Assembly: GCA_964629655.1 (NCBI GenBank)
Contig: CAZVQU010000001.1
Coordinates: 292,056-356,055, forward strand
Direction: 5' to 3'
DNA length: 64,000 bases
Origin: an uncultured Planctomycetia bacterium
GTDB lineage: Bacteria > Omnitrophota > Gorgyraeia > Duberdicusellales > 4484-171
In this document: positions 14,453-51,420 of the stretch, in pieces
Numbering within the stretch: position 1 is the stretch's first letter
Layout of the letters: every line of letters begins with the position of its first letter
Notes under the pieces: generated by a model
The model's input: only the letters and a program-made list of their open reading frames with translations
Database searches by the model: none
What the model was told of the DNA's origin: nothing
Program-made: the position numbers and the translations under genes

Positions 14453-15409
14453 TCATATTGATTTATATTCTTCACAAAGACGGCAAGTAGAACACAAGTT
14501 TCTCCTTTCGTCCTTTGTTGTCCGCCCCTCCCATATTTGTGAAAGGCTATTCTTTTCCAAATTTCCCACAAATAAATCTTCATTATGATAAGGATTGAAT
14601 CGACAACTGCAAATTCTTGCATATCCATCCCAACTCACCAAACACTCAAACATTCGGAAACAAGGACGGCATCTATACCGCACAGAAGGAGCAAGGCTCA
14701 TGCCGTTTAGAAGATTCTTTTGTGTAATTACCCCACCCCAAACGTAGTATCTTGTTAAAAACTCAACCTTTTTCCTGTCAATAAAGGGCTCAACGTATTC
14801 CTTGTAATCCGGCAAACACAAAACCTCTTTTGTGGGTATATCGCTACGGAAAGCAAGGGTTATATCCGCAATATTGCCAAGATCTTTATTCGCAACAAGA
14901 AGGTTTTTTAATCCTACTAGTAGCTTATCATAGTCTTTACTTCGATATATCCGTTCAAACTTTTCTCTTTTCAAGGGAGCGGTTGAAATAATTATTTTAA
15001 GCCCACTATTGAGGATGATCTGAGGAGAGAATTTGTGCAAAAAAATTCCGTTTGTTCGTAAACAACCACTGGGAAAGTTAAAGGACTTTATTGTTTCAAT
15101 CCTTTTAGAAAATTTAGGATCAACTAAGGGGTCACCCACTAAAGACCCCAGTTGAATAAACTTTCCATCCATTTGTTTATATTCGGTTAGAGCTTTATTA
15201 AATATCTCATCAGACATAAAACCTGTTCCGCGTGTTTGATATTGATATGCGCAAAAAATACAGTTGGCATTACAAATATTGGTTGTTTCAAGATGCAATT
15301 TACCTGGTGGCCTTTTTTCAAGATACTGCCAAGGGGTAAATTTGGTTAGAGTGATAAAGTCTTTGATAACACGTTTCAAATTCAAAAATTTGTGGTTAAG
15401 TAATTTCAT
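14453..15409 (-). CDS. Radical SAM enzyme with SPASM-type C-terminal Cys cluster
   Basis: CNANCIFC (CxxxCxxC); C-terminal CRPCFRMFEC...CSCRF...CSTCRLC cysteine-rich region. Confidence 0.7.
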   Translation of the reverse strand: MKLLNHKFLNLKRVIKDFITLTKFTPWQYLEKRPPGKLHLETTNICNANCIFCAYQYQTRGTGFMSDEIFNKALTEYKQMDGKFIQLGSLVGDPLVDPKFSKRIETIKSFNFPSGCLRTNGIFLHKFSPQIILNSGLKIIISTAPLKREKFERIYRSKDYDKLLVGLKNLLVANKDLGNIADITLAFRSDIPTKEVLCLPDYKEYVEPFIDRKKVEFLTRYYVWGGVITQKNLLNGMSLAPSVRYRCRPCFRMFECLVSWDGYARICSCRFNPYHNEDLFVGNLEKNSLSQIWEGRTTKDERRNLCSTCRLCEEYKSI

Positions 15410-17090: not shown

Positions 17091-17166
17091 CTGGCAAAAT
17101 ATGTTTTTTAGTCATTGTGGCATCTCGAAAACCAATCAAACCTCTTAGTAAACTTATTAAATACAC

Positions 17167-18846
17167 TCATTTTTGGACCCGACTATCAGATGATTTAGGA
17201 CAGAATGAAACCTTGAGGTTGCGTATTTTTATGGATTGCCCGGCACTCTTTATCCCTAGGGAATAAATATCATGTATGACAGAACGCCCATCCGCTAGCG
17301 AAACAAACGGACACCCATTTAATTTTATTACCCATTTCCCTTTTTCCTTTTCTACACATAAGACATGCCAAGCATTTTCTTTATAACTTCCTAAACGACG
17401 CCACCTCAGCCAACGGCACCACGTCAAATTGTAGCGTCCAATTATCTTCTGTAAAAGCATCGACAGACTGCGTTTAGTCTTAACCCATCCTACCCGCAAA
17501 TATATCTTGCTGTGTTCAAACCCTAATCGAATTCCCTCAACTGTATTTAAAGTGCTTATATCGTCACCCAAAACTATAAAAGCCGAACCCTTATCAGCCG
17601 ACTCAACAAAAATATCAAAAGAGATCCCTTGCAGAGAACCTTGATTAAAAAAAGAAAAATATATTTGAGGTGGGAATAAACTATCTGCGCTTTGACGGAG
17701 ACAGACAATTTCAGATTCTCCCTCACCTGCCGGCAACAAATTCACATCGCGCGGCTGGTCAGATACGATACGAAAAGAATACTTACTCCGGGCATCTCTA
17801 ATCCACCCTTGAGCTAACCCAACCACACCACCTTTATGACTAGGGCCCCTTCGAGGAATACCCATAAGAAAAACCCGCATGGGATTACGTCCTTGTTCTA
17901 TATCTTCTTTTGCTACTACAACTCCCTCTATGCGACCAGAGAAAGGTCCATCTAAGGGACTTCCACTTGGCAAGATAAAAGGATTTCCAGGGTGTTCCCG
18001 CCAATCTTTGAAATCTTTTGTAAACGCAAAGCCAATTGCATAAAATCCAGAATTATAATGGGCATTAAAAGCAAGCATGTATATTCCTTCCTCCTCTAAA
18101 ACAGTAATTCGCGGATTAGCAACCCTTTGTACAATCCAAGATTTAACCTGGTTAGCAGAAAAAATAGGACATCCTTTGTTTAACGGCTTAAAGTGCTCTC
18201 CATCTTTTGAAATAGCCCCAAATATCTGAATATAGCCAAAACTGGCTGATATGCCTTCAAATGTCAATAGATAACGACCGTCGAACATTTGTACTACATT
18301 TGTAACGGCCATTAATGTTCGCCCTTTTTTAGGAAAGTCTGCAAAATCAGCCTTTGTTAAAAGCGGTTTCGAGCCAACTCGCTCAAAATTGATGCCGTCC
18401 CTACTCAAGGCTAAACCAATCCCTTCATCTTTATAAATACCCCTTGCTCCTCGATAATAAAGTCGGTAAATACCCTCGTCATCCCGCACTACCCAGGGTG
18501 TAGTGGCTATAGGACTATCCCATGCATCTTTAGGGGGAATAAGTACAGGTCTTTCGGGTGAACGATGCCAAGTTCGGCCTTCATCATGGGATACGGCTCT
18601 GCCTATTCCTTGGCAAAGACCGCTTTTATGGCTGCCGGTATAATAAAGGACTAAGGCGCCTTTTTCTCGAAAGAGATAACCGCGACTGTCCACAAGCAAG
18701 GCCGGATCCCGAACACCAAATTCGTCCCATGCGCCTTTACTAGCACGCTTTAATACAACTTTAGGTCTATCAATCCACAACCCTTCCAAATTCTTTGGGC
18801 ATTCTAAATTTGATTTAATCAAAAATGGGGCCGACTGCCAATCCAT
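17167..18846 (-). CDS. Asp-box/BNR beta-propeller protein with C-terminal LamG/concanavalin-like domain (sialidase- or glycoside-hydrolase-like fold); cytoplasmic, with no signal peptide
   Basis: Perfect Asp-box SHDEGRTW, plus degenerate SRDGINF and SKDGEHF. C-terminal WHVLCVEKEKGKWVIKLNG is a LamG-like pattern. Confidence 0.4.
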   Translation of the reverse strand: MDWQSAPFLIKSNLECPKNLEGLWIDRPKVVLKRASKGAWDEFGVRDPALLVDSRGYLFREKGALVLYYTGSHKSGLCQGIGRAVSHDEGRTWHRSPERPVLIPPKDAWDSPIATTPWVVRDDEGIYRLYYRGARGIYKDEGIGLALSRDGINFERVGSKPLLTKADFADFPKKGRTLMAVTNVVQMFDGRYLLTFEGISASFGYIQIFGAISKDGEHFKPLNKGCPIFSANQVKSWIVQRVANPRITVLEEEGIYMLAFNAHYNSGFYAIGFAFTKDFKDWREHPGNPFILPSGSPLDGPFSGRIEGVVVAKEDIEQGRNPMRVFLMGIPRRGPSHKGGVVGLAQGWIRDARSKYSFRIVSDQPRDVNLLPAGEGESEIVCLRQSADSLFPPQIYFSFFNQGSLQGISFDIFVESADKGSAFIVLGDDISTLNTVEGIRLGFEHSKIYLRVGWVKTKRSLSMLLQKIIGRYNLTWCRWLRWRRLGSYKENAWHVLCVEKEKGKWVIKLNGCPFVSLADGRSVIHDIYSLGIKSAGQSIKIRNLKVSFCPKSSDSRVQK

Positions 18847-18916: not shown

Positions 18917-20356
18917 TTAAATTGTTGACTCGCTTTTCAACAATTTAAAAATATTATAATTGTATTTCTTAAGATAAACTATCGGGATCGAGACAAAAAT
19001 CAAAAATAGAAATAACAAAACAGACAATAAAATACTAAGTATACGATAATCCATAATTAATAAAAGCGTAACCGCACAGCACCCTAATAAAAACTGAAAA
19101 ATAAAAATACTTAGCGGCAAACCAAAACTGTGCCTTTTCTCACTTACGATTACGGCCATTATATTCCTTGATAACATAGCAAGCATTGTTGCGATACTAG
19201 CTCCCACAATCCCCCATATCGGTATAAAAATAAAATTTAATAAAATATTTAAAATTGCACATATCAACACAATAAGCGACAATGCCCCTCTATTTTCCGA
19301 CATAATAGTGCCCAGTTGTGTAATCTGCAAAAACCCATAAAAAATAAAAGATATACTCAGTATTCCGATCACTTTATAACTACCATAATAAGCCACTGGA
19401 ACAATAACCTTAATCAAAGGTGCGCATAATGATACTAATATTGCTAAGGATAGGCCCAGGCCCAGAAATATTCTGGAAACAAAAATGAAAAGCTTCTTAT
19501 TATCAATATTTTTCATTGCAATCGGCCACCAAGCTGTACGAAATACTGTCGAATAAAAAAATAAAATAAAAGCACATCTATAGCCTAAGGAATAAATTCC
19601 TACGTATTCCAACCCCATAAAATATTTTATGCACCATCTATCGGTAATGTTAATTATAACTACGCCCAATGTCGAAGGAACTAATGGCAACCCGAATTTT
19701 AAAAGTTTTGGCCACCATTTAGTATGCAATTGAGACCAATTTAAATATCTCTTTATGCTTCGCCAGGCCAAAAAAAGAGCTACGACCGCAGAAACGCAAT
19801 AGCCGGTATAATATCCTAAAACTCCCATCTTGAAAAAAATGATTAATACTATGGCAACTGTTGCCAACAATACATTCCTGCTGGCCCTTATAGCTATATA
19901 CTTAATCGTTTGATGAGTATATCTTAATATTTCTATAAATTGGGATTGAAAGATGAAACAAAAAAATCCGATAAAAGCAATTAAAAAAAACCCTTTACTT
20001 AATTTACCGTCAAAAAAATAGATATTTAGTTTTGATGACAAAAATATTGCAAAACACATTACAATCACACTAATTATCAGCCGTAATTGTAGTATTGAAG
20101 TCACTAATTTTTTTTGCTCAAGCTTATCATTTTTTATTGAAAAAAAGAAATACGACTGTGATGATAGCAAACCGAAATTGCATAAAATTCCTATAAGCAT
20201 TATTATCGTGCCCATCATCTCTATTGTTCCATATTCATATGTTGTTAAATACCTTGTATAGACTGGTATTAATACAAAACTAATTAACATTGCAAATGCA
20301 TCGCCAACGCCGTAAACAAAAGAATCCTTTGCTAATTGCCTAATATTTTCTCTCAT
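18917..20356 (-). CDS. Wzx-type oligosaccharide flippase (MOP superfamily polysaccharide biosynthesis protein)
   Basis: About 12-14 TM helices, N-terminal ...AKDSFVYGVGDAFAMLISFVLIPVYTRYL... typical of Polysacc_synt/Wzx. Confidence 0.7.
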   Translation of the reverse strand: MRENIRQLAKDSFVYGVGDAFAMLISFVLIPVYTRYLTTYEYGTIEMMGTIIMLIGILCNFGLLSSQSYFFFSIKNDKLEQKKLVTSILQLRLIISVIVMCFAIFLSSKLNIYFFDGKLSKGFFLIAFIGFFCFIFQSQFIEILRYTHQTIKYIAIRASRNVLLATVAIVLIIFFKMGVLGYYTGYCVSAVVALFLAWRSIKRYLNWSQLHTKWWPKLLKFGLPLVPSTLGVVIINITDRWCIKYFMGLEYVGIYSLGYRCAFILFFYSTVFRTAWWPIAMKNIDNKKLFIFVSRIFLGLGLSLAILVSLCAPLIKVIVPVAYYGSYKVIGILSISFIFYGFLQITQLGTIMSENRGALSLIVLICAILNILLNFIFIPIWGIVGASIATMLAMLSRNIMAVIVSEKRHSFGLPLSIFIFQFLLGCCAVTLLLIMDYRILSILLSVLLFLFLIFVSIPIVYLKKYNYNIFKLLKSESTI

Positions 20357-20367
20357 CCTATAAAGTC

Positions 20368-21555
20368 TTATCTTTTCTGCTTTTTCCTTTTTTCATGAAT
20401 CCATCCTAATATACGGAAAGCCGGTAACAAAGGAAAAATAAAAAGCCATCGAAAGATTAAAGCTAAAACAGGTAAACAACATGTTTCATAGTTCCATATT
20501 TTTTTGATCCTTTTTCTATTATTAAAAATAAAAGCCTCTACCAATACAATTTCAAATTTTGTTAATTCTTCTTTCCAAGCCATTACTCTGCTTTTGTCGA
20601 CAACATCTCCGGTAATCTTTCGGGCTGTAATGACTTTGGAATTTTGATTAATAATAGTTGGCAATGTCATGTTGGGCGAAAAAGATATGCCAATAAATTT
20701 GCATATATTGCGCATAACATCTTCCGTATTAGTACAAAAATCTTCGTATCGTATAACTTTTACGCGTTCTAATCCATAGCTCGATAAATATGAAATCAGC
20801 ATTTCATAGATATTATTTATAATGCTAGCATCTTGCATTGTGTAGAATAATTTTTTAAAAAAATTATATTTCTTCCTCTTTTTAGCAAAAGTAAAATGCC
20901 CTTTTCTACTCGCCATCATTCCTTGGGGACTTCTTACTGTAAAAAGAACCTTTCCCCTTGGAAACATGCTGATAAAATCAGGTATATAATTATTCGGCAC
21001 CCGCGATTTTGAAGTAAGAGAAGCAGTCGGAGTGCTTTCTGAGTGAAATGCCCATGATTTTTTATCTTCTATACCACTTTTATCTTTTATCGCCTCTATC
21101 GCAGCTAATACAGTCTGTTGCATAATATTCTTTGGTGAAATTTTATTTTCTTGAGTAATTTTCTCTAAATTTTCCAACAACTGCCTGTGGTAAATATCAA
21201 AAGAGAAATGATCCTTCCAGTTTTCTATTCCTCTTAAATACCCACGAAGCTTTATCTTGCAAAAAGGTAGATCTATATATCCTTGTGGAATTGGAATATA
21301 TTCATTGTTGCAGTCAAAATTAAAAAGTTTCCTTTCCGTCTGTTGACCAATAAATTTGCTTCCTAAAATCCAATCCATTACCATATGTTTCCCAGAAGCG
21401 TATTTTCGTTGAGTTAATAAACGAAAATAAGGAATGTCCGGAAAAACAAACATCTCTTTATTGCCATCTAAAAGTTCACTGAACAACGTTCCGCCTGTCT
21501 TCATAGGTGTTGATATTAAAACTGCGTTTTCAAACCAATCACAACTATCTGTCAT
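20368..21555 (-). CDS. Sulfotransferase-family protein (Sulfotransfer_3-like), C-terminally membrane-anchored
   Basis: 5'-PSB-like ISTPMKTGGTLF, 3'-PB-like TVRSPQGMMAS, and VKVIRYEDFCTNTEDVMRNICKFIGISF matching the YEDLxxDPxxx...FLG hallmark; C-terminal TM helix. Confidence 0.5.
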   Translation of the reverse strand: MTDSCDWFENAVLISTPMKTGGTLFSELLDGNKEMFVFPDIPYFRLLTQRKYASGKHMVMDWILGSKFIGQQTERKLFNFDCNNEYIPIPQGYIDLPFCKIKLRGYLRGIENWKDHFSFDIYHRQLLENLEKITQENKISPKNIMQQTVLAAIEAIKDKSGIEDKKSWAFHSESTPTASLTSKSRVPNNYIPDFISMFPRGKVLFTVRSPQGMMASRKGHFTFAKKRKKYNFFKKLFYTMQDASIINNIYEMLISYLSSYGLERVKVIRYEDFCTNTEDVMRNICKFIGISFSPNMTLPTIINQNSKVITARKITGDVVDKSRVMAWKEELTKFEIVLVEAFIFNNRKRIKKIWNYETCCLPVLALIFRWLFIFPLLPAFRILGWIHEKRKKQKR

Positions 21556-21585
21556 TTTCTGCCTCTTTTACCCGACGGTGTTAAT

Positions 21586-22401
21586 TTAGCTTTCTAAATA
21601 TCCCCATCTTTTTAAATATCCCCCAAACCTCTCATTAACATCATCCAGAACTATTTTGGGTAAACCTTCTTTAAATCCTCCATACCCACCTTTACGAAAA
21701 TGAGTCTTAGGCATATCTTTTTTCCCTGACTCTTTTAATCTGCAGATCATATTATCTTTAACAACCTGTTTTGCTTTATCTTCATCAAAATCTATTCTCC
21801 ACCGGGTAAAAAGTCTTCGTAACTCACTAACTGGATCATCCCACAACATTTCATATTTTATTAATGGAACTCCGCTACTAACATATTCTTCTGCGTGATT
21901 CAACCAATTATAAAAGAGAGTCTTGTAAGACAAAAAGTATTCAAAGTAAAATGTTTCAATATCATCAAAAACACAATGCGGATGTAACCTTTTATAATAA
22001 TCCGTTTGTGAAAAATAATAGTAGGAAACAATGATATCCCTTATGTCACGTATAATATAAACTACAGAAATAAAATCCTTTCTAAAAGCCGTCATTGGAA
22101 ATAAATTATCATGGGTCATGGTTAGGGCTGTTTTACCAACATCTTTCCAAGGACCAATAATCTCTAAGTTGAAATAATCTGACAATAAAAAACAAAGCCA
22201 CTTATTGCCTGATTTTGGCAACCCCACAATTAATACTTTTCCGTTCTTTCTTTTTCTGAAATCTCGATTAACAGAATACCCATATAGGTTATATTTTTTT
22301 GTAAACGAAGGAGCGTAAGGCATTATGTATTTGCCTATGACAGGAATACGATTAAATAGCTGTTTAGTTTTTGACAATCTGTAGTATACTTCAAGTCTCA
22401 T
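21586..22401 (-). CDS. PAPS-dependent sulfotransferase
   Basis: GLPKSGNKWL (5'-PSB P-loop), IIRDIRDIIVSYYYF (3'-PB RxxRDxxxS), IKYEMLWDDPVSELRRLF (YEDL..DP block). Confidence 0.65.
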   Translation of the reverse strand: MRLEVYYRLSKTKQLFNRIPVIGKYIMPYAPSFTKKYNLYGYSVNRDFRKRKNGKVLIVGLPKSGNKWLCFLLSDYFNLEIIGPWKDVGKTALTMTHDNLFPMTAFRKDFISVVYIIRDIRDIIVSYYYFSQTDYYKRLHPHCVFDDIETFYFEYFLSYKTLFYNWLNHAEEYVSSGVPLIKYEMLWDDPVSELRRLFTRWRIDFDEDKAKQVVKDNMICRLKESGKKDMPKTHFRKGGYGGFKEGLPKIVLDDVNERFGGYLKRWGYLES

Positions 22402-22491: not shown

Positions 22492-23469
22492 TCAGGTTTT
22501 TACCCGCCATAATTCCTTTAATATACTTCTATTTTGATCAGCAATTACACCAAATCCCAAAAAAAGTAGACTAAAAATGGCGAGCAATAAAGCTACTAAC
22601 GCCATGTATATGCTTACCTCTTTTATCAATAATCTGTAGATGCCATAACAAAAAAATAAAAAGCTGGTTGCCATTAGAAATAAACTAATTGCCCAGAAAT
22701 ATTTGATAGGCCGAGCTAAAAACATAAATTTTAAATGAGTTCTTAGCAACTTTGTTGTACGTGAACTAGATTTTCTCCTTATTTCTTTATTTCCTGACCT
22801 GTCTACATGCTTCTTCCATTCTAAATTTGCTGGAATCTCGCCTATCCTATAATTCAATGCATAAAGTTTTAACAATACCTCCAAATGAAACTCCTTGCCT
22901 CTTTCTCTTATATGAACTCCCTGGATAACTTCCCGCCAATATCCTCTTGTCATACCGGTATTCATGCTTATTCCTGGTACAAAAAATAATCTTATAAGGA
23001 AATTTCCTATTTTGCTTAACAAAATTCTTCTAAAAGGGACATTCTTGTATCCTCCTCCGCAAAGATTGGGAGATGCTACCACACAATCTAAACTAGGCTC
23101 CTGCTCAAATTTATTTACTATTTTATAAACAATATCCTCTCCCCAGCTCAGATCAATTTCGGTAGTTACAATTATATCTCCGGTTGCTTTTTCAATGCCC
23201 TTCTTCAAGGCATACCCCCTTCCATGATTGTAAGGATAGGTAATCAGAACTATATCCTCTCTATCCTTAACTATATTTCTTACTACATTGAAGCTTTCAT
23301 CCTTACTACCATCATCTACAAGAATAAGCTCCCAGGGATACTTGAGATTCGACAATAGATTAACAAATTTCTTAACAGTATCCTCAATAATGGACTGCTC
23401 ATTGTAATAAGGGCAAACTACTGAAATTTTTTTTATCTTGTGTTTATTTAATTCTAATATTTCTGGCAT
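22492..23469 (-). CDS. GtrB/ArnC/DPM1-like GT2 polyprenol-phosphate glycosyltransferase
   Basis: KISVVCPYYNEQSII..., ELILVDDGSKD, C-terminal two TM helices (FWAISLFLMATSFLFF... and ALVALLLAIFSLLFLGFGVI). Confidence 0.7.
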   Translation of the reverse strand: MPEILELNKHKIKKISVVCPYYNEQSIIEDTVKKFVNLLSNLKYPWELILVDDGSKDESFNVVRNIVKDREDIVLITYPYNHGRGYALKKGIEKATGDIIVTTEIDLSWGEDIVYKIVNKFEQEPSLDCVVASPNLCGGGYKNVPFRRILLSKIGNFLIRLFFVPGISMNTGMTRGYWREVIQGVHIRERGKEFHLEVLLKLYALNYRIGEIPANLEWKKHVDRSGNKEIRRKSSSRTTKLLRTHLKFMFLARPIKYFWAISLFLMATSFLFFCYGIYRLLIKEVSIYMALVALLLAIFSLLFLGFGVIADQNRSILKELWRVKT

Positions 23470-25078
23470 GTTTCCTCCGCTTTTTTTTAGAGCTTCTGCT
23501 ATCGCTAATAGGGTTTTTAAAAATACTAGACATCAAACGTAATCCCATTTTTGCCTTACGCCGAAATTCAGACCACTGCTTAATCTTTAAAATTTCTCTT
23601 ATGATATACCCTGGGCGAAAATAATAGCGACGAACCGCTTCATTTCTAAAGCTAATGAGTTCACCCAAGTGGAGATTTTCTTCATACACCTCTGGTATGC
23701 AAAAATTTGCTGTAGGCCTTAAGGCAAATTCCCTCCAGTAGTCATAGCTAATTATTCCTTTGCTCAAGGCCTCAGTGTACATCTCTGTGCCTGGATAAGG
23801 AATAGTAATAGAAAATTCAGTATAGTCAGCATCCAAGTCAAGGGCAAAATCGATGCTCCTCTTTATATCCTTAACAGTTTCGCCTTTGTTCCCAATCATA
23901 AAATAGGTAAGGACAGAAAAACCCTTTTTCTTTGCTAAACGGACTGCCCCACTTGCTTGATCAGTTGTGATATTTTTTTCCATTAATCCAAGTATCCGAT
24001 TCACCCCTGATTCAATACCATAATGAATTCTTAAGCAACCACTTCTTTTCATCAAGTCTAGAAGTTCAGGATCTGTTGAATTTACTCTATCTCTTATTGA
24101 CCAAGTAAGTTTTATTTTTCGTGTGATAAGTCCTTGACATATATCCTTCGTGCGTTTTTTTGACCAAGTAAAAGTATCGTCGTAAATCTCGACTTCTTTT
24201 ATTCCAAGGTCATGTATTCTTTCAAACTCTTTAATTACATTCTCAGCAGATCGACATAGCATCTTCTGGTAATTCATTTTGCAAAAAATACATTTATGCG
24301 GACAACCTCGGCTGGTAAGCATTGTGGTTACAAAATTAGACTTGCCAATTACAGAGGTATAACAGCTTAAAGGCAAAAGTGACCTATCCGGAATAGGTAA
24401 ATCGTCAAGATTCTTTTGAATAAAAAACCTCTGTTCTCCATTTTTTACCCCATATTTCTTAAAATGTAATCCGGGTAAATCATTATCAATCTTGTAATTA
24501 GCAAACATATTACATAAATACGTGAACGGTATTTCACCATCGCCAACTATTATGCTATCAACATGCTCAGCAGAAAGTGTTTCTTCAAGATAAATATTCA
24601 CATGAGGCCCACCATAGCAGATATGAACCTCAGGCATAAGATTTTTAATCAGGCGTCCTAAATGGAATGCCGGATACCACCAATCTGTCCAGGCTGAAAT
24701 CCCAACAACATCTGGTCTATGCACCTCCACTTCTTGGATACATTCCTCAAGATTAAACCCTTGGGCCTGAGCATCCAATACTCTCACCTGGTGAGGAGTT
24801 TTTTCTTTCAATAAGGTTGCGATATATAAAAGCCCCAAAGGTGGTTTGAAACCAATACTTTCCCCATGTTTGCTCATATGAGAGAGTAATGATCTTACCC
24901 CTCCAATATTAGGAGGCTGAATTAACATCACACGAATCGGCCTTGTTGCTGTTTTCCATTCGGATTTAAGGCATGCCTGATGTTCTCTGCTTCTAAATGA
25001 TACTGGATCCAGGTTCATCTTTGATATTTCCTTTCTATATTTATGAATTGTAAGTAATGCTACAAGCTTTACTGACAA
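23444..25078 (-). CDS. Cobalamin-binding (class B) radical SAM enzyme
   Basis: N-terminal B12-binding-like Rossmann region (IRVMLIQPP...LGLLYIATLLKE), then TSRGCPHKCIFC (CxxxCxxC). Confidence 0.75.
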   Translation of the reverse strand: MSVKLVALLTIHKYRKEISKMNLDPVSFRSREHQACLKSEWKTATRPIRVMLIQPPNIGGVRSLLSHMSKHGESIGFKPPLGLLYIATLLKEKTPHQVRVLDAQAQGFNLEECIQEVEVHRPDVVGISAWTDWWYPAFHLGRLIKNLMPEVHICYGGPHVNIYLEETLSAEHVDSIIVGDGEIPFTYLCNMFANYKIDNDLPGLHFKKYGVKNGEQRFFIQKNLDDLPIPDRSLLPLSCYTSVIGKSNFVTTMLTSRGCPHKCIFCKMNYQKMLCRSAENVIKEFERIHDLGIKEVEIYDDTFTWSKKRTKDICQGLITRKIKLTWSIRDRVNSTDPELLDLMKRSGCLRIHYGIESGVNRILGLMEKNITTDQASGAVRLAKKKGFSVLTYFMIGNKGETVKDIKRSIDFALDLDADYTEFSITIPYPGTEMYTEALSKGIISYDYWREFALRPTANFCIPEVYEENLHLGELISFRNEAVRRYYFRPGYIIREILKIKQWSEFRRKAKMGLRLMSSIFKNPISDSRSSKKKRRKHARNIRIK

Positions 25079-25084
25079 TATATA

Positions 25085-26503
25085 CTATCTAATTGCAGTT
25101 CTAATAAAAGCATATATAGCCATTATAAAGCGTCTAACATCTTTTAATGATCGCAATCTCCTCAGATGAGCCCAAACAATCTTCGGACGCAAATAAAACT
25201 TTTTAAAAGCTAATTTAGAAAAATGAGTGAGATCTTTTCTCGTAAACCCTTGAGGAACGAAATTTATCGTTAAATTATTCATTTTATTCCAATCTAAATT
25301 AACTTTTCCATGTTGCGCTGCCATCTGATACACCTCTGTGCCTGGATAAGGAGTAAGAAATGTCTGCTGAAAATAATCTAAATCGGCATCAAGAATAAAC
25401 TCTAGCGTTTCTTCAAGCGTCTCTTTAGTCTCCCCCACGTACCCAAAAATAAAATTACCTCGTGTCATGATATCCGCTTCTTTCGTCCACTTTAGCGCCC
25501 GACTTATCTGATCAATAGTAATATATTTTTTCATAGTCCCCAAAATTTTAGGACTACCACTTTCAATCCCATATTCTATTTGCCAACACCCAGCTTTCCT
25601 CATCAATTGCAGCATTTCTGGACTAACCATATTTACTCGCGCGCAACAACTCCAACTTATATTGTATTCTTTTTCAATGAGAATTTGACAGATTTGCCTT
25701 AGCCTTTTTGGGTCAGTTACAAAATTGTCATCGTAAATAAGTAATTCTTTGATACCATGGTTAGTCATCAAATGTTCAATCATTCGAATAACATAATTAG
25801 CACTATAAGCTCTGAACTTTTTCCCAAAAACACTCGTATCGCAAAACGTACAACTTCCTGGACAACCTCTAGAGGTTAAAACAGCAGTAGATTTATCTGA
25901 AGTAGTTCCTATTATAGACATATGATAAGGATTGGTAAGTGATGGCAATAAGTCCCATGCTGGAAAGGGCAAAAAATCCATATCTACTTCGGATTCTCTA
26001 ATATTTGTTCTGAAAATATTATCATTTTTACGGAAAATAATCCCTTTGACCTCCGCCAAATCTCTTTTTTTATCTACTAAGCAATCTAAGAGTTCGATAA
26101 AAGTTTCTTCTCCCTCCCCAATAACACCAATATCAAATTGAGGAAATAACTCAAAAGTTTCTTCAGGCACAGCAGTAATATGAGAACCTCCAATAATTAT
26201 TTTTAAATCCGGATTAGATAACTTGATGGATTTACCAACTTCAGCGGCTGCATGAACTGAAGAAGTGGTAGCTGTAACCCCTACTAGGTCAGGATGTTGA
26301 GCAAAAATATACTCAGCTGTAGACTTTAGAGACAGTTTCTGTGCATAAGCATCAATAACAGATACGGAATGACCTTGTTGTCTAGCTACTGCAGCTAGCA
26401 GTAAGAGTCCTAGCGGCGGGCTAACACTATCTACCGCAGAAAGATCCCAGTCACCGTATAAACCATCAAAAGATAAAGAAGGATTAACTAAACAAATATT
26501 CAT
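25085..26503 (-). CDS. Cobalamin-binding (class B) radical SAM enzyme
   Basis: N-terminal B12-binding-like region (MNICLVNPSL...PPLGLLLLAAVARQQGH), TSRGCPGSCTFC radical SAM motif. Confidence 0.75.
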   Translation of the reverse strand: MNICLVNPSLSFDGLYGDWDLSAVDSVSPPLGLLLLAAVARQQGHSVSVIDAYAQKLSLKSTAEYIFAQHPDLVGVTATTSSVHAAAEVGKSIKLSNPDLKIIIGGSHITAVPEETFELFPQFDIGVIGEGEETFIELLDCLVDKKRDLAEVKGIIFRKNDNIFRTNIRESEVDMDFLPFPAWDLLPSLTNPYHMSIIGTTSDKSTAVLTSRGCPGSCTFCDTSVFGKKFRAYSANYVIRMIEHLMTNHGIKELLIYDDNFVTDPKRLRQICQILIEKEYNISWSCCARVNMVSPEMLQLMRKAGCWQIEYGIESGSPKILGTMKKYITIDQISRALKWTKEADIMTRGNFIFGYVGETKETLEETLEFILDADLDYFQQTFLTPYPGTEVYQMAAQHGKVNLDWNKMNNLTINFVPQGFTRKDLTHFSKLAFKKFYLRPKIVWAHLRRLRSLKDVRRFIMAIYAFIRTAIR

Positions 26504-26518: not shown

Positions 26519-27610
26519 TCAAAAACCTTTTAATATCTCCGTAATTCTTAACGCTGTCTTACCATCCCATTTATCAGGAACAATTCCTTTTTTGACCTTT
26601 CCTCTCAAAATATCTGTAATAACATCTGGTAACATATCAATTTCTTCATCCTTTATTAAAACATTCGTTCCTAACTCAATCGTTACCGGTCTCTCTGTGT
26701 TATTCCTTAATGTAAAACAAGGTTTACCAAGCGCTGTTGTTTCTTCCTGCAATCCACCACTATCAGTTACAACTGCAACAGCATCTTTCCATAAAAATAA
26801 TGATTCCAAATAGGAAAGTGGCTCTAAAGAATATATAGTAGGAGGCGTATCTAATTGAAACTCCTCCAAATTATTTCTGGTACGTGGATGGATGGAAAAA
26901 ATTATAGGGGCGATCTTGGAAACACTTTCTAGAACCCGCAAAAGTTTACTGAGTTTATTTTTGTCATCTACATTAGCAGGCCGATGTAAAGTTAAATAAA
27001 TATACTTTCCTAACTTTTTTTTCAATGGTGCTGAAGAAAAATTAAAATGAGAACTTTTCAATCTGTCTAAACCAAAAATAAGTGAATCGATCATAGTATT
27101 GCCAACAAAAAATATGTTATTAGGGTTCTTACCCTCTTTAATAAGGTTCTCTACGCCAGCTTTCTCAGTTACAAAAAGAAAATCTGCAATACTATCAGTT
27201 ACTCTTCTGTTAATTTCCTCAGGCATACTAATATCGAAACTTCTCAATCCGGCTTCAATATGAGCTACCTTTATCCCAAGTTTCTTTGCGGTAATAGCGC
27301 TGGCTATAGTTGAATTAACATCCCCAACAACGATAACCAAATCCGGAGCTATTTTCTTTAATACTTTTTCTAAAGAAATTATAATCTTCGCAATCTGCTC
27401 AGCATGGCTACTGCTTCCCACCTTTAAATAATAGTGAGGTTTTGGTATCTCTAAGTCATCAAAAAATACCTTGCTCATATTGTCGTCGTAATGCTGGCCA
27501 GTATTCACAATTATGGCTTTAAACGCTTTTGTTTCATTAATTGCCCTTACAATAGGGGCGATTTTCATAAAATTAGGCCTTGCCCCGCCGATAAAAACTA
27601 AAGTCCTCAT
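26519..27610 (-). CDS. UDP-N-acetylglucosamine 2-epimerase, non-hydrolysing (WecB-like), second copy
   Basis: MRTLVFIGGARPNFMKIAPIV..., HIEAGLRSFD, EEINRRVTD. Divergent from the copy at 1984..3069. Confidence 0.8.
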   Translation of the reverse strand: MRTLVFIGGARPNFMKIAPIVRAINETKAFKAIIVNTGQHYDDNMSKVFFDDLEIPKPHYYLKVGSSSHAEQIAKIIISLEKVLKKIAPDLVIVVGDVNSTIASAITAKKLGIKVAHIEAGLRSFDISMPEEINRRVTDSIADFLFVTEKAGVENLIKEGKNPNNIFFVGNTMIDSLIFGLDRLKSSHFNFSSAPLKKKLGKYIYLTLHRPANVDDKNKLSKLLRVLESVSKIAPIIFSIHPRTRNNLEEFQLDTPPTIYSLEPLSYLESLFLWKDAVAVVTDSGGLQEETTALGKPCFTLRNNTERPVTIELGTNVLIKDEEIDMLPDVITDILRGKVKKGIVPDKWDGKTALRITEILKGF

Positions 27611-27630: not shown

Positions 27631-29520
27631 TTAATTCTTTTCTTGGTCGATAAATGTCCTGAACCAAAGCTCGATCGACAAAAGAGAGTATATCTTATTT
27701 GCTCGCACATAATCATACAGAGTATCTCTCGACCATCGAAAATGAGAATCTAATAACTTTTTGATGTATCGAACATTAAATATTCCTCTCTCTTTTATTC
27801 TCTTGCTAGTTAATATATCAAAAACAAAATCTCGCAACTCTTTTTTGAACCAACCTGCTATAGGAGTGGGGAAACCCATTTTAGGGTGTTTATAAAATTC
27901 TTTAGGAAAAACATCTTTCATCATGGCTTTAGTCAAATATTTCAGCTCATTATTGTATAGCTTATAGCGATAGGGAATTCGCGCGGAAAGCTCAACCATC
28001 TCATTATCACACATCGGCATTCTACTCTCTATAGAATGAGCCATTCCTACCTTGTCTTCCTGTATAAAGAGAGTGGGTAGGTAGGTTTTTAAATAAAGGT
28101 AGAGTGTCTGTTCAGTGCAAGAAAAATTCTTGCCCTTTAAATATTTATCTTCTAAATTCTGCGCAGGAGAATAGCCTTGGACTTGCTTCAAAAATTCAGG
28201 AGTGAAAAGCTTGCTTCTTTGTCGTTTATTAAACATGACAAAAAGTCCATATTTAACCTCGTCAAACAGTAAGGGGCAAAAGGAAAAATAAAGAACTTTC
28301 CAAATCTCATCCGGCCTATTTTTCCAAAAGAATCGCAAAAAGCTTGAAAAATCATTCTTCAAAAGATCTTTATAAAAAGAAGCTTTGTATACCTGGTATC
28401 CAGCAAATAACTCATCTCCCCCGTGACCGGTTAAAACTACTTTTACATGTTTTGATATTTCCTTGGCAACAATATAGTGAGGAAACGCTCCAGAACCCAA
28501 TGTTGGCTCATCCAAATGATACATAACCTTTTCGATATTTTCCCTGAAATCTTTCGCGGTTATTTGAATTTCAGTATTTTGTGTATCAGAGAATTTTTCG
28601 AAAGTTTTGGTAATATTTCTCTCATCATATCTTTTACCCTCAGCAAAATACCCAGTAAAAGTTTTTAAAGGGTAATCTAAAAAATGCGGAGCAGAAAAGG
28701 CTACGCTTGAAGAGTCAAACCCTCCACTTAAACAACTTCCTATTTCCACATCGCTAACCAGATGCCGCCTTACTGATCTTTTAAAAGTATCTTTATAAAT
28801 TTCTGAAGCTTCGTTGATATCGCTAAAAGAATATCGATTATTAAAGTCCAGATCCCAATATCTCTTAAATTCCAAACAACCATTATGAATTTTTAAAAAA
28901 TAACCAGGAAGAAGCTTGTAAATATCTTTAAAAAATGTTTTTTCGTCAATGGTATTTTGAAAAGTTGTAAAGTCTACAATAGTATGCAAATTAGGAGCTC
29001 TCTCGACAGACGGATAAAGCAAAATGGCCTTAATTTCCGATGCCCATACAAATACGCCATCTTTATGCCAGTAATAGAGCGGTTTCATGCCAATTCTGTC
29101 GCGGACAAGATAAAGTAAATTTTTATTTCGATCATAAAGAGATATGGCAAACATCCCGCTTAAGCGTGTAAATACGTTCTCGCCCCACTCTTCATATCCA
29201 TGAATAATCACTTCGGTATCAGATTCTGTAGAAAACTTATGTCCATCTTTAATAAGAATCTTCCTTAGCTCCTGGTAATTATAGATTTCACCATTATAAG
29301 CTATTACAATCGATGCATCCTCATTAAACATAGGCTGTCTACCTTTCTCTAAGTCAATGATAGCCAAACGCCTATGCCCTATTAAACAATGACTATCTTC
29401 GTATGCGCCTTCACCATCTGGGCCTCTATGCTTCAGTAAATCCGACATCTTCCTTAAAACGATTTTATCGTTTCGGCCAATTAATCTGCTGGATTTAAAT
29501 ATTCCTACTATGCCACACAT
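27631..29520 (-). CDS. Asparagine synthase (glutamine-hydrolysing)-family amidotransferase (WbpS/AsnB-like)
   Basis: N-terminal MCGIVGIF (Ntn Cys2 glutaminase), SGGFDSS PP-loop ATP pyrophosphatase motif (CLSGGFDSSSVA), 629 aa. Confidence 0.8.
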   Translation of the reverse strand: MCGIVGIFKSSRLIGRNDKIVLRKMSDLLKHRGPDGEGAYEDSHCLIGHRRLAIIDLEKGRQPMFNEDASIVIAYNGEIYNYQELRKILIKDGHKFSTESDTEVIIHGYEEWGENVFTRLSGMFAISLYDRNKNLLYLVRDRIGMKPLYYWHKDGVFVWASEIKAILLYPSVERAPNLHTIVDFTTFQNTIDEKTFFKDIYKLLPGYFLKIHNGCLEFKRYWDLDFNNRYSFSDINEASEIYKDTFKRSVRRHLVSDVEIGSCLSGGFDSSSVAFSAPHFLDYPLKTFTGYFAEGKRYDERNITKTFEKFSDTQNTEIQITAKDFRENIEKVMYHLDEPTLGSGAFPHYIVAKEISKHVKVVLTGHGGDELFAGYQVYKASFYKDLLKNDFSSFLRFFWKNRPDEIWKVLYFSFCPLLFDEVKYGLFVMFNKRQRSKLFTPEFLKQVQGYSPAQNLEDKYLKGKNFSCTEQTLYLYLKTYLPTLFIQEDKVGMAHSIESRMPMCDNEMVELSARIPYRYKLYNNELKYLTKAMMKDVFPKEFYKHPKMGFPTPIAGWFKKELRDFVFDILTSKRIKERGIFNVRYIKKLLDSHFRWSRDTLYDYVRANKIYSLLSIELWFRTFIDQEKN

Positions 29521-29591: not shown

Positions 29592-30638
29592 TTAGTTTCT
29601 GCTTACTTTTTTTCCAAAGTAAACAAAAATCGAATCCCAGGACCAGCCGAGAAAAAAAATAAAAAGTGGTATGGCCCATATAAACAGTCTTTGAATAAAC
29701 CAATATTGAAAATAAATACATGCTAAAAAAAGTAAACCAATCGGTATAACAATTAAAATAGTGAAAAACATCGCTTGCTTAAGCCTCTGGCTATGCGGTA
29801 TAAACAAATTAATGACTATTCCCGGCAATAACAAATAAAATATTCTCCGCCCGGTAAGATTGCCGAATATACCCTTTAGTACAGAAATTACTCCTTTATG
29901 AATATACTCAAAAGTGTTATGTCCCATATGCAGATGTTTATGATTAGATAGCGACCAGAGCAACAGCGGTAAAGCAAACAATATTGCCATGCCGTAATGT
30001 TTCAGATGTTTCAAGAACATAACCCCAACTGTTTTATCCTTTCTGGATAGTAAAAGATGAAAAATATAAGAAAAAAATAACATAAATACGCTAAAAGGAT
30101 GAAATAGAATAGCTACAAAAATAAATACCGAGATAAGAATTCTTTTAATGGGTGGCGGCTTTACGCATTCAAAAATATACTGCATCACCAAAAATATTGC
30201 TATACTTAATGTGGCAAGAACACTATAGGGACGTATTTCAAACGCGTGACGAATTAAAGTATAGTTGGAAGCGAAAACGCTAAAGGTTATAAGATAAGCC
30301 CATGGCGTTTTAAAATACTTCCGGCATAACATATAAAGCAAGTAAAAACCCAAAAGCGTTATTATAATATGGGGAATTGCTAATCCCCATATATTTTCGC
30401 CAAACCATTGATAAAAAGGGTAAATCAATAGATAATCACCAAGGCCCTGCATTATTCCTACGGAAGAAGCAATCGCTGCCGAAAAAGATCCTTTCATGCT
30501 ATGTACCTGAGCCATCTCATCTTGCCATAAAGGACATATTCGCCGTTGATACCTTAGATGCATACCCCATATCGTAATTAATATAATAAAACTCATGGTA
30601 ACTATACGAAAATTATTTTGCCGTAAATAACGAATCAT
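29592..30638 (-). CDS. GT-C-fold (ArnT/PMT-like) integral membrane glycosyltransferase, short form
   Basis: About 9 TM helices. The first extracytoplasmic loop has PLWQDEMAQVHSM, resembling the ArnT/PMT DE motif region. Confidence 0.35.
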   Translation of the reverse strand: MIRYLRQNNFRIVTMSFIILITIWGMHLRYQRRICPLWQDEMAQVHSMKGSFSAAIASSVGIMQGLGDYLLIYPFYQWFGENIWGLAIPHIIITLLGFYLLYMLCRKYFKTPWAYLITFSVFASNYTLIRHAFEIRPYSVLATLSIAIFLVMQYIFECVKPPPIKRILISVFIFVAILFHPFSVFMLFFSYIFHLLLSRKDKTVGVMFLKHLKHYGMAILFALPLLLWSLSNHKHLHMGHNTFEYIHKGVISVLKGIFGNLTGRRIFYLLLPGIVINLFIPHSQRLKQAMFFTILIVIPIGLLFLACIYFQYWFIQRLFIWAIPLFIFFLGWSWDSIFVYFGKKVSRN

Positions 30639-30665: not shown

Positions 30666-31799
30666 CTACCAACCCGACTTTATTAGTTTTACAATATATT
30701 CTCGATCTTCCGGCGAAACCCACCAGCCACACGGTATACATAGCTCCGTACTCTGAAATTTAGAAACGTTCGCTAGCTCCTCTTTTGAATCTTGAAAACA
30801 TGTATAGATATCATTACGAACATGCAAAAGGCTGTTATGCACCCCGTACTCAGTCAACTTACGAGAAAGGCCGTCACGCCTTTCGGCAAAAAGCATAAAA
30901 ACCCACCATGCCGGTTCAATATCTTGCGTAATATCCGGCAAAGTAACACCGGGGGTACCTTTTAAATTCTCTAAATAAAAATTTGCATTATCTTTATGCT
31001 TACTAACAATGGCATCAATGTGTTTAAGTTGTTCTATGCCAATAGCAGCAGCTAAATTATTCATATGCATCTTATATCCGGCCTCAATAACATCGCAACC
31101 CCAACGGCTCCCACGCCAATTCCCCGCCGCATCCTTGGTAGCTTCTCTATCTATGCCGAACCATTTAAGCTTACAGCCGCGACGGTAATTATTTTCATCT
31201 AGAAAAGAAAGCGCGCCTCCATCACCAGTCGTAAGATGTTTAATGGCCTGAAAACTAAAACAAGTAAAATCTGAGATGGAACCGATACTCCTACCCTTAT
31301 ACTTTGCTCCAAAAGCCTGTGCAGCATCCTCAATAATTTTAATATTATATCTTCTACCAATAGTTTTGATTTTATCTAAATCCGCTGGAATACCTGCCCA
31401 ATCAACAAAAAGAATCGCCTTTGTTTTTTCGGTGATTAACTTTTCTATTTTTTCGGCATCAATATTACCGGTTTTAGGGTTAATATCACACCACACCGGT
31501 TTTGCAAAAAGATTATTTATCGGGGTATTAGTTGCCACACAAGTCATTGGGGTAGTTATCACCTCTGTTCCAGGACCAACCCCGGCAATATTTAATGCAA
31601 TAGTTAACGCGCTAGCGCAACTATTTGTAGCCATAGTCAACTGGTTCTCAAACTTATTTTTAAGCTGTTTCTCAAACTCTGTAACCTGGATTCCTTCGTT
31701 AATGAAACCGGAAAAAAGAACATTTTTCATCGGTTCCATAACGTCTGCCGGCATATGAACCTTAAAAAGAGGTATATTCATTATCATTTTATTCATCAT
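30666..31799 (-). CDS. DegT/DnrJ/EryC1/StrS-family PLP-dependent sugar aminotransferase
   Basis: Fold-type I AT layout; SFQAIKHLTTGDGG with the Schiff-base lysine; 377 aa. Confidence 0.8.
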   Translation of the reverse strand: MMNKMIMNIPLFKVHMPADVMEPMKNVLFSGFINEGIQVTEFEKQLKNKFENQLTMATNSCASALTIALNIAGVGPGTEVITTPMTCVATNTPINNLFAKPVWCDINPKTGNIDAEKIEKLITEKTKAILFVDWAGIPADLDKIKTIGRRYNIKIIEDAAQAFGAKYKGRSIGSISDFTCFSFQAIKHLTTGDGGALSFLDENNYRRGCKLKWFGIDREATKDAAGNWRGSRWGCDVIEAGYKMHMNNLAAAIGIEQLKHIDAIVSKHKDNANFYLENLKGTPGVTLPDITQDIEPAWWVFMLFAERRDGLSRKLTEYGVHNSLLHVRNDIYTCFQDSKEELANVSKFQSTELCIPCGWWVSPEDREYIVKLIKSGW

Positions 31800-40424: not shown

Positions 40425-40454
40425 TTCTTTCTCCCTATTAATCCGCTAAAAAAC

Positions 40455-43996: not shown

Positions 43997-44015
43997 CCTC
44001 CCCTATTAAGCACCT

Positions 44016-45236: not shown

Positions 45237-45292
45237 GCTTTAAATATTAAAATATCTTTACTATCGTTTCAAATTTGTTTTGCTTCATATCC

Positions 45293-46084: not shown

Positions 46085-46091
46085 GCCATAA

Positions 46092-47033: not shown

Positions 47034-47036
47034 TCT

Positions 47037-47819: not shown

Positions 47820-47877
47820 AATCTTACTCCCCCTACTTTTAAAGATTAAATAACTTTCATCAAAATTAAACAGGTAT

Positions 47878-48639: not shown

Positions 48640-48694
48640 TTAAAATGTCCTCTTCCCTTTATCTATCATTACCGTAAAGGATACATCCATACTA

Positions 48695-49579: not shown

Positions 49580-49616
49580 AATTTGTTAATCCAAACTAAT
49601 AAAACACAAACGCGGC

Positions 49617-50696: not shown

Positions 50697-50709
50697 AGTT
50701 TAAACCTTC

Positions 50710-51408: not shown

Positions 51409-51420
51409 ACATAGTAAGTT

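Follow-up and report, generated by a model that had tools for sequence, protein, structure and literature searches.

The window, that is, the whole 64-kb stretch of contig CAZVQU010000001.1 analyzed here (an uncultured bacterium of the Omnitrophota, assembly GCA_964629655.1), encodes two adjacent class-B radical S-adenosylmethionine (SAM) proteins, here called rSAM-A and rSAM-B, in a gene cassette that recurs in distant taxa. The conserved core of the cassette is composed of an AsnB-type amidotransferase, rSAM-B, and a family 2 glycosyltransferase (GT2), to which rSAM-A is a recurrent addition. Its most likely product is a sugar with an unusual modification, destined for a polysaccharide of the bacterial surface. 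The model as a whole, in which two non-redundant class-B radical SAM enzymes tailor a sugar that decorates the cell-surface polysaccharide, is given a probability of about 0.45, slightly below even odds. Class-B radical SAM enzymes are known from the pathways of antibiotics, cofactors, ribosomally synthesized and post-translationally modified peptides (RiPPs), and lipids. The enzyme class and each of the partner families are familiar, but a conserved set of them around a polyprenyl-phosphate sugar synthase has not been described; full-text literature searches, which were incomplete in coverage and give absence of evidence only, returned no paper that assigns an enzyme of this class to O-antigen, capsule, or GtrB-type pathways.

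The central genes, with all coordinates relative to the window, are the following:

27631-29520, minus strand: AsnB-type glutamine-dependent amidotransferase, 629 aa, with GATase_7 and Asn_synthase domains (TIGR01536)
26519-27610, minus strand: WecB-type non-hydrolyzing UDP-GlcNAc (N-acetylglucosamine) 2-epimerase, 363 aa (TIGR00236)
25085-26503, minus strand: rSAM-A, class-B radical SAM protein, 472 aa (PF02310 and PF04055)
23444-25018, minus strand: rSAM-B, class-B radical SAM protein, 524 aa (PF02310 and PF04055)
22492-23469, minus strand: GT2 with C-terminal membrane helices (PF00535, 91.6 bits), of the ArnC/GtrB/DPMS fold

In the order of transcription, a DegT aminotransferase and a 348-aa membrane protein are followed by AsnB, WecB, rSAM-A, rSAM-B, the GT2, two sulfotransferases, and a flippase. 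The block is co-directional, with gaps of 20, 15, and 66 nt from AsnB to rSAM-B, and the end of rSAM-B overlaps the start of the GT2 gene by 26 nt, suggesting translational coupling. Promoter and terminator scans performed no better than on shuffled sequence and were uninformative, and no Rfam match was found anywhere in the window, hence no cobalamin riboswitch.

The two radical SAM proteins

Both proteins possess the CxxxCxxC core and the N-terminal Rossmann-like B12-binding domain of class-B radical SAM enzymes. The B12-binding domain (PF02310, Pfam cut-off 32.1 bits) scores 81.8 bits in rSAM-A and 61.7 bits in rSAM-B, and the radical SAM domain (PF04055, cut-off 29.5 bits) scores 80.5 and 77.4 bits, respectively. 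The cysteines are C214/C218/C221 in rSAM-A and C239/C243/C246 in rSAM-B, which are invariant in the respective orthologue alignments, and every invariant column of these alignments is kept in both proteins. Aligned with each other, the two share 35% identity over 424 aa (E-value 1e-72). An earlier note on this DNA, made from the sequence alone, had described two adjacent, diverged class-B radical SAM genes with a shared architecture, and this description holds. A recent duplicate or a pseudogenized copy is ruled out because both proteins keep the CxxxCxxC motif and all invariant columns, in addition to their low mutual identity and separate orthologues.

The same note gave rSAM-B a length of 544 aa, an open reading frame (ORF; 23444-25078) that rests on an upstream TTG at 25078. 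The start is likely the ATG at 25018, giving a product of 524 aa, since AGGAA lies upstream of it, the 524-aa form is found in public assemblies, and its N-terminus aligns with that of the orthologues. The exact rSAM-A and rSAM-B proteins are also present in the Logan assemblies SRR24302411-13 and SRR24302424.

The rSAM-B orthogroup has over 120 database clusters (52-72% identity), with a mean column identity of 64% and approximately 100 invariant columns. It extends from Alphaproteobacteria to Vulcanimicrobiota, with Azospirillum isscasi, a Magnetospirillum, and Desulfarculaceae among its members, which are annotated merely as "radical SAM protein" or wrongly as BchE or YgiQ. The orthologues of rSAM-A have 51-71% identity, below which they merge into a very large A-like family (40-47%) of bacteria and archaea; in a scan of genome contigs, the relatives had at most 47% identity among the matches listed. 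In a neighbor-joining tree, a distance tree without support values and thus approximate, rSAM-B clusters with metagenome proteins of the B-like kind, with a plasmid protein of Solidesulfovibrio, and with the MoeK5-like protein, and HpnJ lies close by; rSAM-A is nested within the broad A-like family. The two other B12-type enzymes of the window (41376-42917 and 60026-61465) pair together. Judged by their sequences, rSAM-A and rSAM-B are members of different subfamilies and not the products of a local duplication, and they probably do different things. The label "tandem paralogous" in the earlier note is thus apt insofar as the genes are adjacent, diverged, and intact, but not in the sense of a local duplication, as the subfamilies differ and only rSAM-B is a core partner of AsnB and the GT2.

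Among the NCBIfam models, HpnJ (TIGR03471) is the top match of rSAM-B, aligned nearly end to end at 188.9 bits against a cut-off of 577.6. For rSAM-A, BchE and ApyD come first and HpnJ third (199.4 bits against 577.6). Several named identities were considered and rejected: BchE (TIGR02026; rSAM-A 222.4 and rSAM-B 150.1 bits against 481); the AprD4 family diol dehydratase (NF033070; 108.9 and 107.5 bits against 500, with only the core aligned); HpnJ itself, given its cut-off, the approximately 26% identity of true HpnJ to rSAM-B, and a window without hopanoid genes; and PhpK, ApyD, and the other named NCBIfam models, whose cut-offs were not reached. A plasmid search yielded no rSAM-B orthologue. 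Its best match was an uncharacterized Solidesulfovibrio protein, the second was the B12-type radical SAM protein of Streptomyces clavuligerus plasmid pSCL4 (29.8% identity over 86% of the length, E-value 2e-52), and HpnJ proteins at approximately 26% followed. The pSCL4 protein is placed beside the rSAM-B clade in the tree. In bit scores against rSAM-B, the MoeK5-like protein has 189-199 and the HpnJ proteins 120-130.

The closest Protein Data Bank (PDB) sequences are AprD4, followed by MgmA/QCMT (9CCB), which is a cobalamin-dependent C-methylase, and by OxsB, TokK, and TsrM. AprD4 is the best match by sequence (E-value 1e-24 to 1e-25) as well as by fold, with a target-normalized template modeling (TM) score of 0.75. 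The AlphaFold2 (AF2) model of rSAM-B, with a predicted local distance difference test score (pLDDT) of 83.6, gave AprD4, TsrM, OxsB, MgmA, CysS, and TokK as matches. The alignments to AprD4 cover the radical SAM core only, and the N-terminal domains of rSAM-A and rSAM-B can be aligned with the cobalamin domains of OxsB and TokK. Both proteins probably bind cobalamin because their N-terminal domains match PF02310 and these cobalamin domains, a prediction to be read beside the related domains in AprD4 and ArsL-type proteins, which bind no cobalamin.

The conserved cassette and its glycosyltransferase

A metagenome scan seeded by the rSAM-B alignment yielded 80 loci, whose ORFs were clustered de novo. 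An rSAM-B orthologue was present in 54 of them, and 21 of these were well flanked, with at least 4 kb on both sides. The neighborhood counts come from crude six-frame ORF calls, with antisense artefacts (cluster c17) in some high-GC contigs. Within three genes of rSAM-B, the well-flanked loci carry:

GT2 orthogroup: 14/21
AsnB: 14/21
Second B12-type radical SAM gene: 9/21
WecB: 5/21
DegT: 4/21
Polysacc_deac_1 deacetylase: 3/21
YfhO-like protein: 3/21

In the control, consisting of 80 genome loci of the A-like family, AsnB was found in 3/80 and a GT2 of the cassette type in 2/80. Because the neighborhood counts exceed this control, AsnB, rSAM-B, and the GT2 form the conserved core, and the synteny check confirms that the link of the radical SAM genes to their flanking genes is conserved in unrelated taxa. 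The recurrent accessories are rSAM-A, a SAM-dependent methyltransferase, WecB, DegT, deacetylases, and YfhO/PMT-type proteins of the glycosyltransferase C (GT-C) fold. The orthologues of rSAM-A were accompanied by an rSAM-B orthologue in all seven loci inspected, together with AsnB and the same GT2 orthogroup. The gene order varies between loci, but the association with AsnB and the GT2 stays, as seen in the following examples (A, rSAM-A orthologue; B, rSAM-B orthologue):

L003: AsnB, WecB, A, B, GT2, Wzx, membrane protein
L005: B, GT2, deacetylase, A, methyltransferase, sulfotransferase, AsnB and, further on, WecB; also YfhO and DUF2079
L007: SPASM, A, B, GT2, AsnB; also PMT_2 and YfhO
L178: WecB, 766-aa protein, A, methyltransferase, AsnB, B, GT2
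L179: YfhO, A, methyltransferase, AsnB, B, GT2

Orthologues of rSAM-B without rSAM-A adjoin AsnB, WecB, the GT2, and DegT in Azospirillum, Magnetospirillum, and Vulcanimicrobiota. A WecB homologue stands beside rSAM-B in L003, L005, L027, L088, L089, L092, L096, L102, L131, L134/135, and L178, and a DegT gene directly follows it in L088, L090, L093, L106, L108, and L122. Deacetylases (Polysacc_deac_1 or WbmS-like) adjoin rSAM-B or the GT2 in more than 10 loci, separate SAM-dependent methyltransferases recur, and proteins of the YfhO, PMT_2, DUF2079, or LPG_synthase_TM type are encoded in related cassettes. Between AsnB and the rSAM-B orthologue of a Vulcanimicrobiota locus lies a carbamoyltransferase (L090:6712-8532), which recalls the carbamoylation of the same sugar unit by MoeM5 in moenomycin. 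A more distant B-like group, at approximately 390 bits to rSAM-B, was seen in metagenome loci L148-L154 with the order GT2, radical SAM, methyltransferase, and LPG_synthase_TM, mirroring the order of hpnJ, hpnI, and LPG_synthase_TM in the hopanoid locus (L173:6031-9771, Paraburkholderia graminis plasmid).

The GT2 is, judging from its modeled fold, a polyprenyl-phosphate glycosyltransferase of the ArnC/GtrB/DPMS type. Its AF2 model (20 homologues, pLDDT 82.5), compared with the PDB by Foldseek, matched only ArnC, GtrB, or DPMS at ranks 1-21, with E-values of 9e-18 to 8e-12 over approximately 314-333 columns, which is the full length including the C-terminal helices; the hydrophobic segments lie at approximately residues 255-309. 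The best NCBIfam models are ArnC, PgfS, PpgS, and AglJ, all below cut-off, and the protein is no orthologue of a named enzyme (ArnC NF007986, 72 against 529 bits; PpgS, 39 against 370; AglJ, 37 against 325). The earlier note had placed AsnB and WecB before the pair and a GtrB-like undecaprenyl-phosphate-sugar synthase after it, and these flanks agree with the assignments made here. It had also raised a lipid-linked sugar as the possible substrate, which is plausible because the fold is that of a polyprenyl-phosphate glycosyltransferase and MoeK5 and HpnJ offer precedents.

The A-like enzymes at 40-47% identity have a DPM1/PpgS/ArnC-like GT2 within three genes in 12/35 loci, which lends the polyprenyl-phosphate sugar setting independent support. 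In one subgroup of them (g0; L008-L035), the enzymes are often preceded by a soluble DPM1/PpgS-like GT2 together with a DUF2304 membrane protein of 119 aa, which weakly matches DPM3, and GT-C-like TPR proteins sometimes stand alongside; the set looks like another candidate for the tailoring of polyprenyl-phosphate sugars. Another subgroup (g3; 35-38%; L036-L048 and related loci of Gammaproteobacteria and Binatia) has ketoacyl-synthase, SDR, and acyltransferase neighbors, and because of this lipid-synthesis context, the setting cannot be extrapolated below roughly 40% identity.

The amidotransferase of the window scores 479.4 bits with TIGR01536 (cut-off 267), and its N-terminal MCGIVG carries the Cys2 nucleophile. 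An assignment as PEP-CTERM amidotransferase was rejected (472 against 817). The epimerase scores 297.6 bits with TIGR00236 (cut-off 210), and an assignment as NeuC was likewise rejected (85.2 against 235.9 bits). The earlier note had counted it as the second epimerase; it is one of three Epimerase_2 members, since an FnlC-like gene (1984-3069) and a NeuC-like gene beside NeuB (53672-54829) are also encoded. WecB is a recurrent, not universal, member of the cassette.

The further genes around the core are the following:

30666-31799, minus strand: DegT/DnrJ-type sugar aminotransferase (PF01041, 293 bits), candidate cassette member, two genes upstream of AsnB
29592-30638, minus strand: 348-aa polytopic membrane protein with approximately six hydrophobic segments and a sub-threshold PMT_2 match
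21586-22401 and 20368-21555, minus strand: two sulfotransferase genes (Sulfotransfer_1, 60 and 46 bits)
18917-20356, minus strand: Wzx-like MOP-family flippase, 479 aa (PF01943, 79 bits)
15453-17090, minus strand: 545-aa polytopic membrane protein with approximately 10 hydrophobic segments

The 348-aa protein matches PMT_2 below threshold (E-value 0.001, 19.8 against 26.1 bits, profile positions 12-160 of 160) and has no PDB or NCBIfam match; it is a weak candidate for a GT-C transferase of the lipid-linked sugar, and related loci have YfhO, PMT_2, or DUF2079 proteins in its place. The 545-aa protein, with no Pfam, NCBIfam, or PDB match, is a further candidate, either as transferase or as polymerase. 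In L003, a homologue of the flippase directly follows the GT2, and a homologue of the 545-aa protein (672 bits) follows the flippase. The sulfotransferases are otherwise not conserved with rSAM-B, save for a weak one in the L005 cassette, and are probably a local decoration step.

Proposed pathway, known systems, and alternatives

In the pathway proposed here, we infer the substrate, the order of steps, the use of cobalamin, and the type of radical reaction. WecB would supply UDP-ManNAc (N-acetylmannosamine) or a related UDP-HexNAc (N-acetylhexosamine), and the GT2 would load the sugar onto polyprenyl phosphate at the inner membrane face. rSAM-B, and here also rSAM-A, would modify unactivated sugar carbons by 5'-deoxyadenosyl-radical chemistry, which for rSAM-B would most probably be a cobalamin-mediated C-methylation like that of MoeK5. 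The AsnB-type enzyme would turn a carboxyl group of the same sugar unit into a carboxamide, and the two sulfotransferases would decorate it further in this locus. The finished lipid-linked sugar would be flipped and then transferred to the polymer by a GT-C-type protein, for which the genes at 29592-30638 and 15453-17090 are the candidates.

The best available analogy, which is not proof, is moenomycin, where a radical SAM enzyme is paired with an AsnB-type amidotransferase. The moenomycin cluster of S. clavuligerus pSCL4 is syntenic with the moe cluster of S. ghanaensis, and moeE5, moeK5, and moeO5 make the earliest monosaccharide-lipid intermediate of moenomycin (PMC3814723). The gene content of the pSCL4 neighborhood was re-derived, since PLSDB carries no annotation for the moe region, and its order is an NAD-epimerase, AsnB, a 411-aa protein, an AsnB-like protein without the GATase domain, and the B12-type radical SAM protein. 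In moenomycin biosynthesis, MoeK5 adds a methyl group to a carbon of the uronic acid, whose carboxamide is formed by MoeF5. The likeness lies in the combination of a class-B radical SAM enzyme with an AsnB-type amidotransferase and an epimerase of nucleotide sugars (MoeK5, MoeF5, and MoeE5), which in moenomycin act on a phospho-lipid-linked monosaccharide, unit F. Moenomycin differs in being a secondary-metabolite antibiotic built on farnesyl-phosphoglycerate by another first glycosyltransferase, whereas the cassette of the window has an ArnC/GtrB-type GT2, a second radical SAM enzyme, WecB, and sulfotransferases within a surface-polysaccharide locus.

HpnJ is the other informative relative; according to a review, Fom3, MoeK5, and HpnJ cluster together at stringent network thresholds. 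HpnJ has been proposed to ring-contract a glucosamine attached to a hopanoid, acting downstream of the GT2 HpnI and the deacetylase HpnK, a reaction that differs from the methylation of the MoeK5 type. The HpnI/HpnK/HpnJ system, in which bacteriohopanetetrol glucosamine is converted to a cyclitol ether, resembles the cassette in that a class-B radical SAM enzyme works alongside a GT2 and a deacetylase, here on an amino sugar bound to a lipid. The genes hpnJ, hpnI, and that of an LPG_synthase_TM protein are adjacent in Paraburkholderia, and this order is mirrored by GT2, B-like radical SAM, and LPG_synthase_TM genes in metagenome loci. It differs in that rSAM-B scores a third of the HpnJ cut-off at approximately 26% identity, and the window has no hopanoid genes and no deacetylase by the pair. 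Both genetically characterized relatives of rSAM-B, MoeK5 and HpnJ, act on a lipid-linked sugar set by a neighboring transferase.

The ArnC/ArnD/ArnT and GtrA/GtrB/GtrC systems share with the cassette a polyprenyl-phosphate sugar synthase of the ArnC/GtrB fold, and GT-C proteins are encoded repeatedly in related cassettes. ArnD of the Arn system tailors the sugar while it is attached to the lipid, and a GT-C protein transfers it. The cassette differs in that its GT2 misses the ArnC equivalog cut-off and its GT-C partner in the window is weakly indicated; to our knowledge, no Arn/Gtr-type three-component system has radical SAM or AsnB-type tailoring enzymes. Similarly, the AsnB-type amidotransferases of the WbpS/WbtH type are full-length glutamine-dependent homologues in surface-polysaccharide loci. 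They form uronamides in O-antigen loci, where the uronic-acid pathway is encoded nearby. Here, by contrast, AsnB is tied to a radical SAM enzyme, and the ORFs of the window that were scanned contain no UDP-sugar 6-dehydrogenase domain, so that a uronic-acid pathway was rejected as the explanation of AsnB.

A number of points weigh against the proposed pathway. The carboxylate that AsnB would amidate has no evident origin because the inspected cassettes, like the window, encode no UDP-sugar 6-dehydrogenase. WecB stands beside rSAM-B in only about a quarter of the well-flanked loci and could instead serve the WecG/TagA-type transferase at 7411-8202. For both reasons, the ManNAcA(N)-derived unit proposed in the earlier note finds no support. 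The evidence for a GT-C partner within the window is sub-threshold. Neither rSAM-A nor rSAM-B reaches an NCBIfam equivalog cut-off, and no member of either orthogroup or of the cassette has been characterized so far. The approximately 30% identity to MoeK5 is not specific because the archaeal lipid methylase Gmm, an unrelated enzyme, is reported to be equally close. The best PDB match, AprD4, is a non-cobalamin sugar 1,2-diol dehydratase. As far as the sequences go, the radical steps may fall before or after the lipid transfer.

Several alternatives were weighed. The same cassette and class of substrate could serve a rearrangement or dehydration by one or both radical SAM enzymes. An amino sugar on the lipid could undergo ring contraction as with HpnJ or OxsB, or there could be an AprD4-like 1,2-diol dehydration, in which a keto-deoxy sugar would be converted by the neighboring DegT to an amino-deoxy sugar. 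The double methylation suggested in the earlier note is not supported, as nothing in the data distinguishes methylation from ring contraction or dehydration. Among NCBIfam models, HpnJ ranks first for rSAM-B and third for rSAM-A, but its score, like that of AprD4 (189 against 578 and 108 against 500 bits), is far below cut-off, and the MoeK5-like protein outscores HpnJ against rSAM-B. AprD4, which carries out the C3'-deoxygenation of apramycin as a radical SAM 1,2-diol dehydratase, has the nearest of the solved structures, in sequence as well as fold, and its substrate is an amino sugar; it differs in binding no cobalamin, in its soluble pseudodisaccharide substrate, and in belonging to antibiotic biosynthesis, and it aligns at the radical SAM core only, whereas the N-terminal domains of the pair look genuinely cobalamin-type. 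The gene context points both ways: DegT directly follows rSAM-B in at least six loci and stands two genes upstream of AsnB in the window, ordinary SAM-dependent methyltransferases recur in the cassette, and deacetylases by rSAM-B or the GT2 recall the HpnI-HpnK-HpnJ order, but the window has no deacetylase adjoining the pair. A rearrangement or dehydration in place of C-methylation, the strongest of the rival readings, is on balance somewhat unlikely.

The radical SAM enzymes might instead act on a soluble cytoplasmic nucleotide sugar, the GT2 then loading the finished sugar on the carrier lipid or the growing chain. This is consistent with the lack of membrane segments in both proteins, apart from one weak hydrophobic stretch in rSAM-A, with the nucleotide-sugar enzymes WecB, DegT, and NAD-epimerase among the neighbors, and with the soluble substrate of the solved relative AprD4. 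It is nevertheless unlikely, since the B and A-like subfamilies are each linked specifically to polyprenyl-phosphate-type GT2s and not to other glycosyltransferases, MoeK5 and HpnJ act after lipid attachment, and the rSAM-B/GT2 overlap suggests translational coupling.

A substrate other than a sugar, such as the carrier lipid, a substituent of the acyl or amino-acid kind, or some other metabolite, with the glycan location reflecting co-regulation only, is improbable. The top models of rSAM-A do include BchE and ApyD, which are porphyrin and RiPP enzymes, many class-B enzymes from this region of sequence space modify lipids, and the A-like subgroup at 35-38% lies among ketoacyl-synthase, SDR, and acyltransferase genes. 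However, the BchE and ApyD scores are far under their cut-offs, and the close orthologues of rSAM-A and rSAM-B are always among glycan genes, with GT2, AsnB, and GT-C proteins as specific partners. An incidental adjacency, in which radical SAM, AsnB, and GT2 genes simply accumulate in the large polysaccharide loci of anaerobes and share no pathway, is very improbable: seven radical SAM and several GT2 genes in the window make some adjacency expected, and the metagenome loci, many on short contigs, were retrieved via rSAM-B itself, but the triad recurs in varied orders in distant taxa with specific GT2 and AsnB orthogroups, and the control loci of related radical SAM enzymes rarely carry either.

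If the proposed working of the cassette is correct, radical C-H functionalization would join the chemistry carried out on carrier-lipid-linked sugars, new branched, deoxy, or carbocyclic sugars would be predicted on the surfaces of many uncultured anaerobes, and a role would be assigned to the large conserved rSAM-B orthogroup (more than 120 clusters, at least 52% identity). A bolder proposal, speculative and unlikely to hold in full, is that AsnB, rSAM-B, and the ArnC-like GT2, with rSAM-A as an add-on, represent an undescribed and widespread route of radical carbon-skeleton chemistry on polyprenyl-phosphate-bound sugars, by C-methylation to a moenuronamide-like branched uronamide or by formation of an HpnJ/Cds-like carbocycle. 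It would bring to surface polysaccharides sugar types for which antibiotics and hopanoid or archaeal lipids are so far the only known sources. The role of the cassette is directly testable because the rSAM-B orthogroup occurs in at least one culturable organism, A. isscasi (GCA_030849505.1, contig JAUJFI010000136.1).

Other genes of the window

The window, with a G+C content of approximately 36%, is one very large surface-polysaccharide locus. Every domain-recognizable ORF of at least 120 aa across all 64 kb lies on the minus strand, and the plus-strand GC skew is uniformly and strongly negative over 1-64000 (approximately −0.13 to −0.28). Besides the cassette, the window encodes GT1, GT2, and WecG/TagA transferases and a Wzy-like protein, a nonulosonic-acid pathway (NeuB, NeuC-like epimerase, dehydratase, and aminotransferase), an FnlA/B/C-like set, and a CDP-glycerol glycerophosphotransferase. 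In the FnlA/B/C-like set (1984-5011, minus strand), the Epimerase_2 gene is grouped with Polysacc_synt_2 and RmlD_sub_bind genes, resembling the arrangement of the L-FucNAc (N-acetyl-L-fucosamine) type.

The seven radical SAM genes comprise four of the B12 type and three of the SPASM type. The B12-type genes are rSAM-A, rSAM-B, 41376-42917 (513 aa), and 60026-61465 (479 aa); the five radical SAM genes of either type outside the pair, all on the minus strand, are 9061-10149, 14453-15409, 40455-41375, 41376-42917, and 60026-61465. The last of these sits inside the nonulosonic-acid pathway (53672-62531, minus strand) between a 4,6-dehydratase (61533-62531) and a DegT aminotransferase (58846-59997), and further on in this region are a FabH-like ketoacyl synthase (KAS) III, an SDR, a PglD-like acetyltransferase, NeuB, and the NeuC-like epimerase, which suggests an unusually modified or acylated nonulosonic acid. 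The region 39489-52494 (minus strand) contains the CDP-glycerol glycerophosphotransferase, two CMP-type cytidylyltransferases, a CBS-nucleotidyltransferase, an HpcH/HpaI aldolase, FkbM and other methyltransferases, a class I/II aminotransferase, a GFO/IDH/MocA oxidoreductase, and a 2-hydroxyacid dehydrogenase. The content suggests a second pathway to an unusual substituent, arranged around the B12/SPASM radical SAM pair at 40455-42917.

Downstream of the flippase, a 559-aa soluble protein encoded within 15453-18846 (minus strand) has faint GH130-like matches only. Upstream of the cassette lies a gene of the inositol-monophosphatase/CysQ family (38750-39499, minus strand), which, taken with the sulfotransferases at 20368-22401, hints at a sulfated surface glycan.

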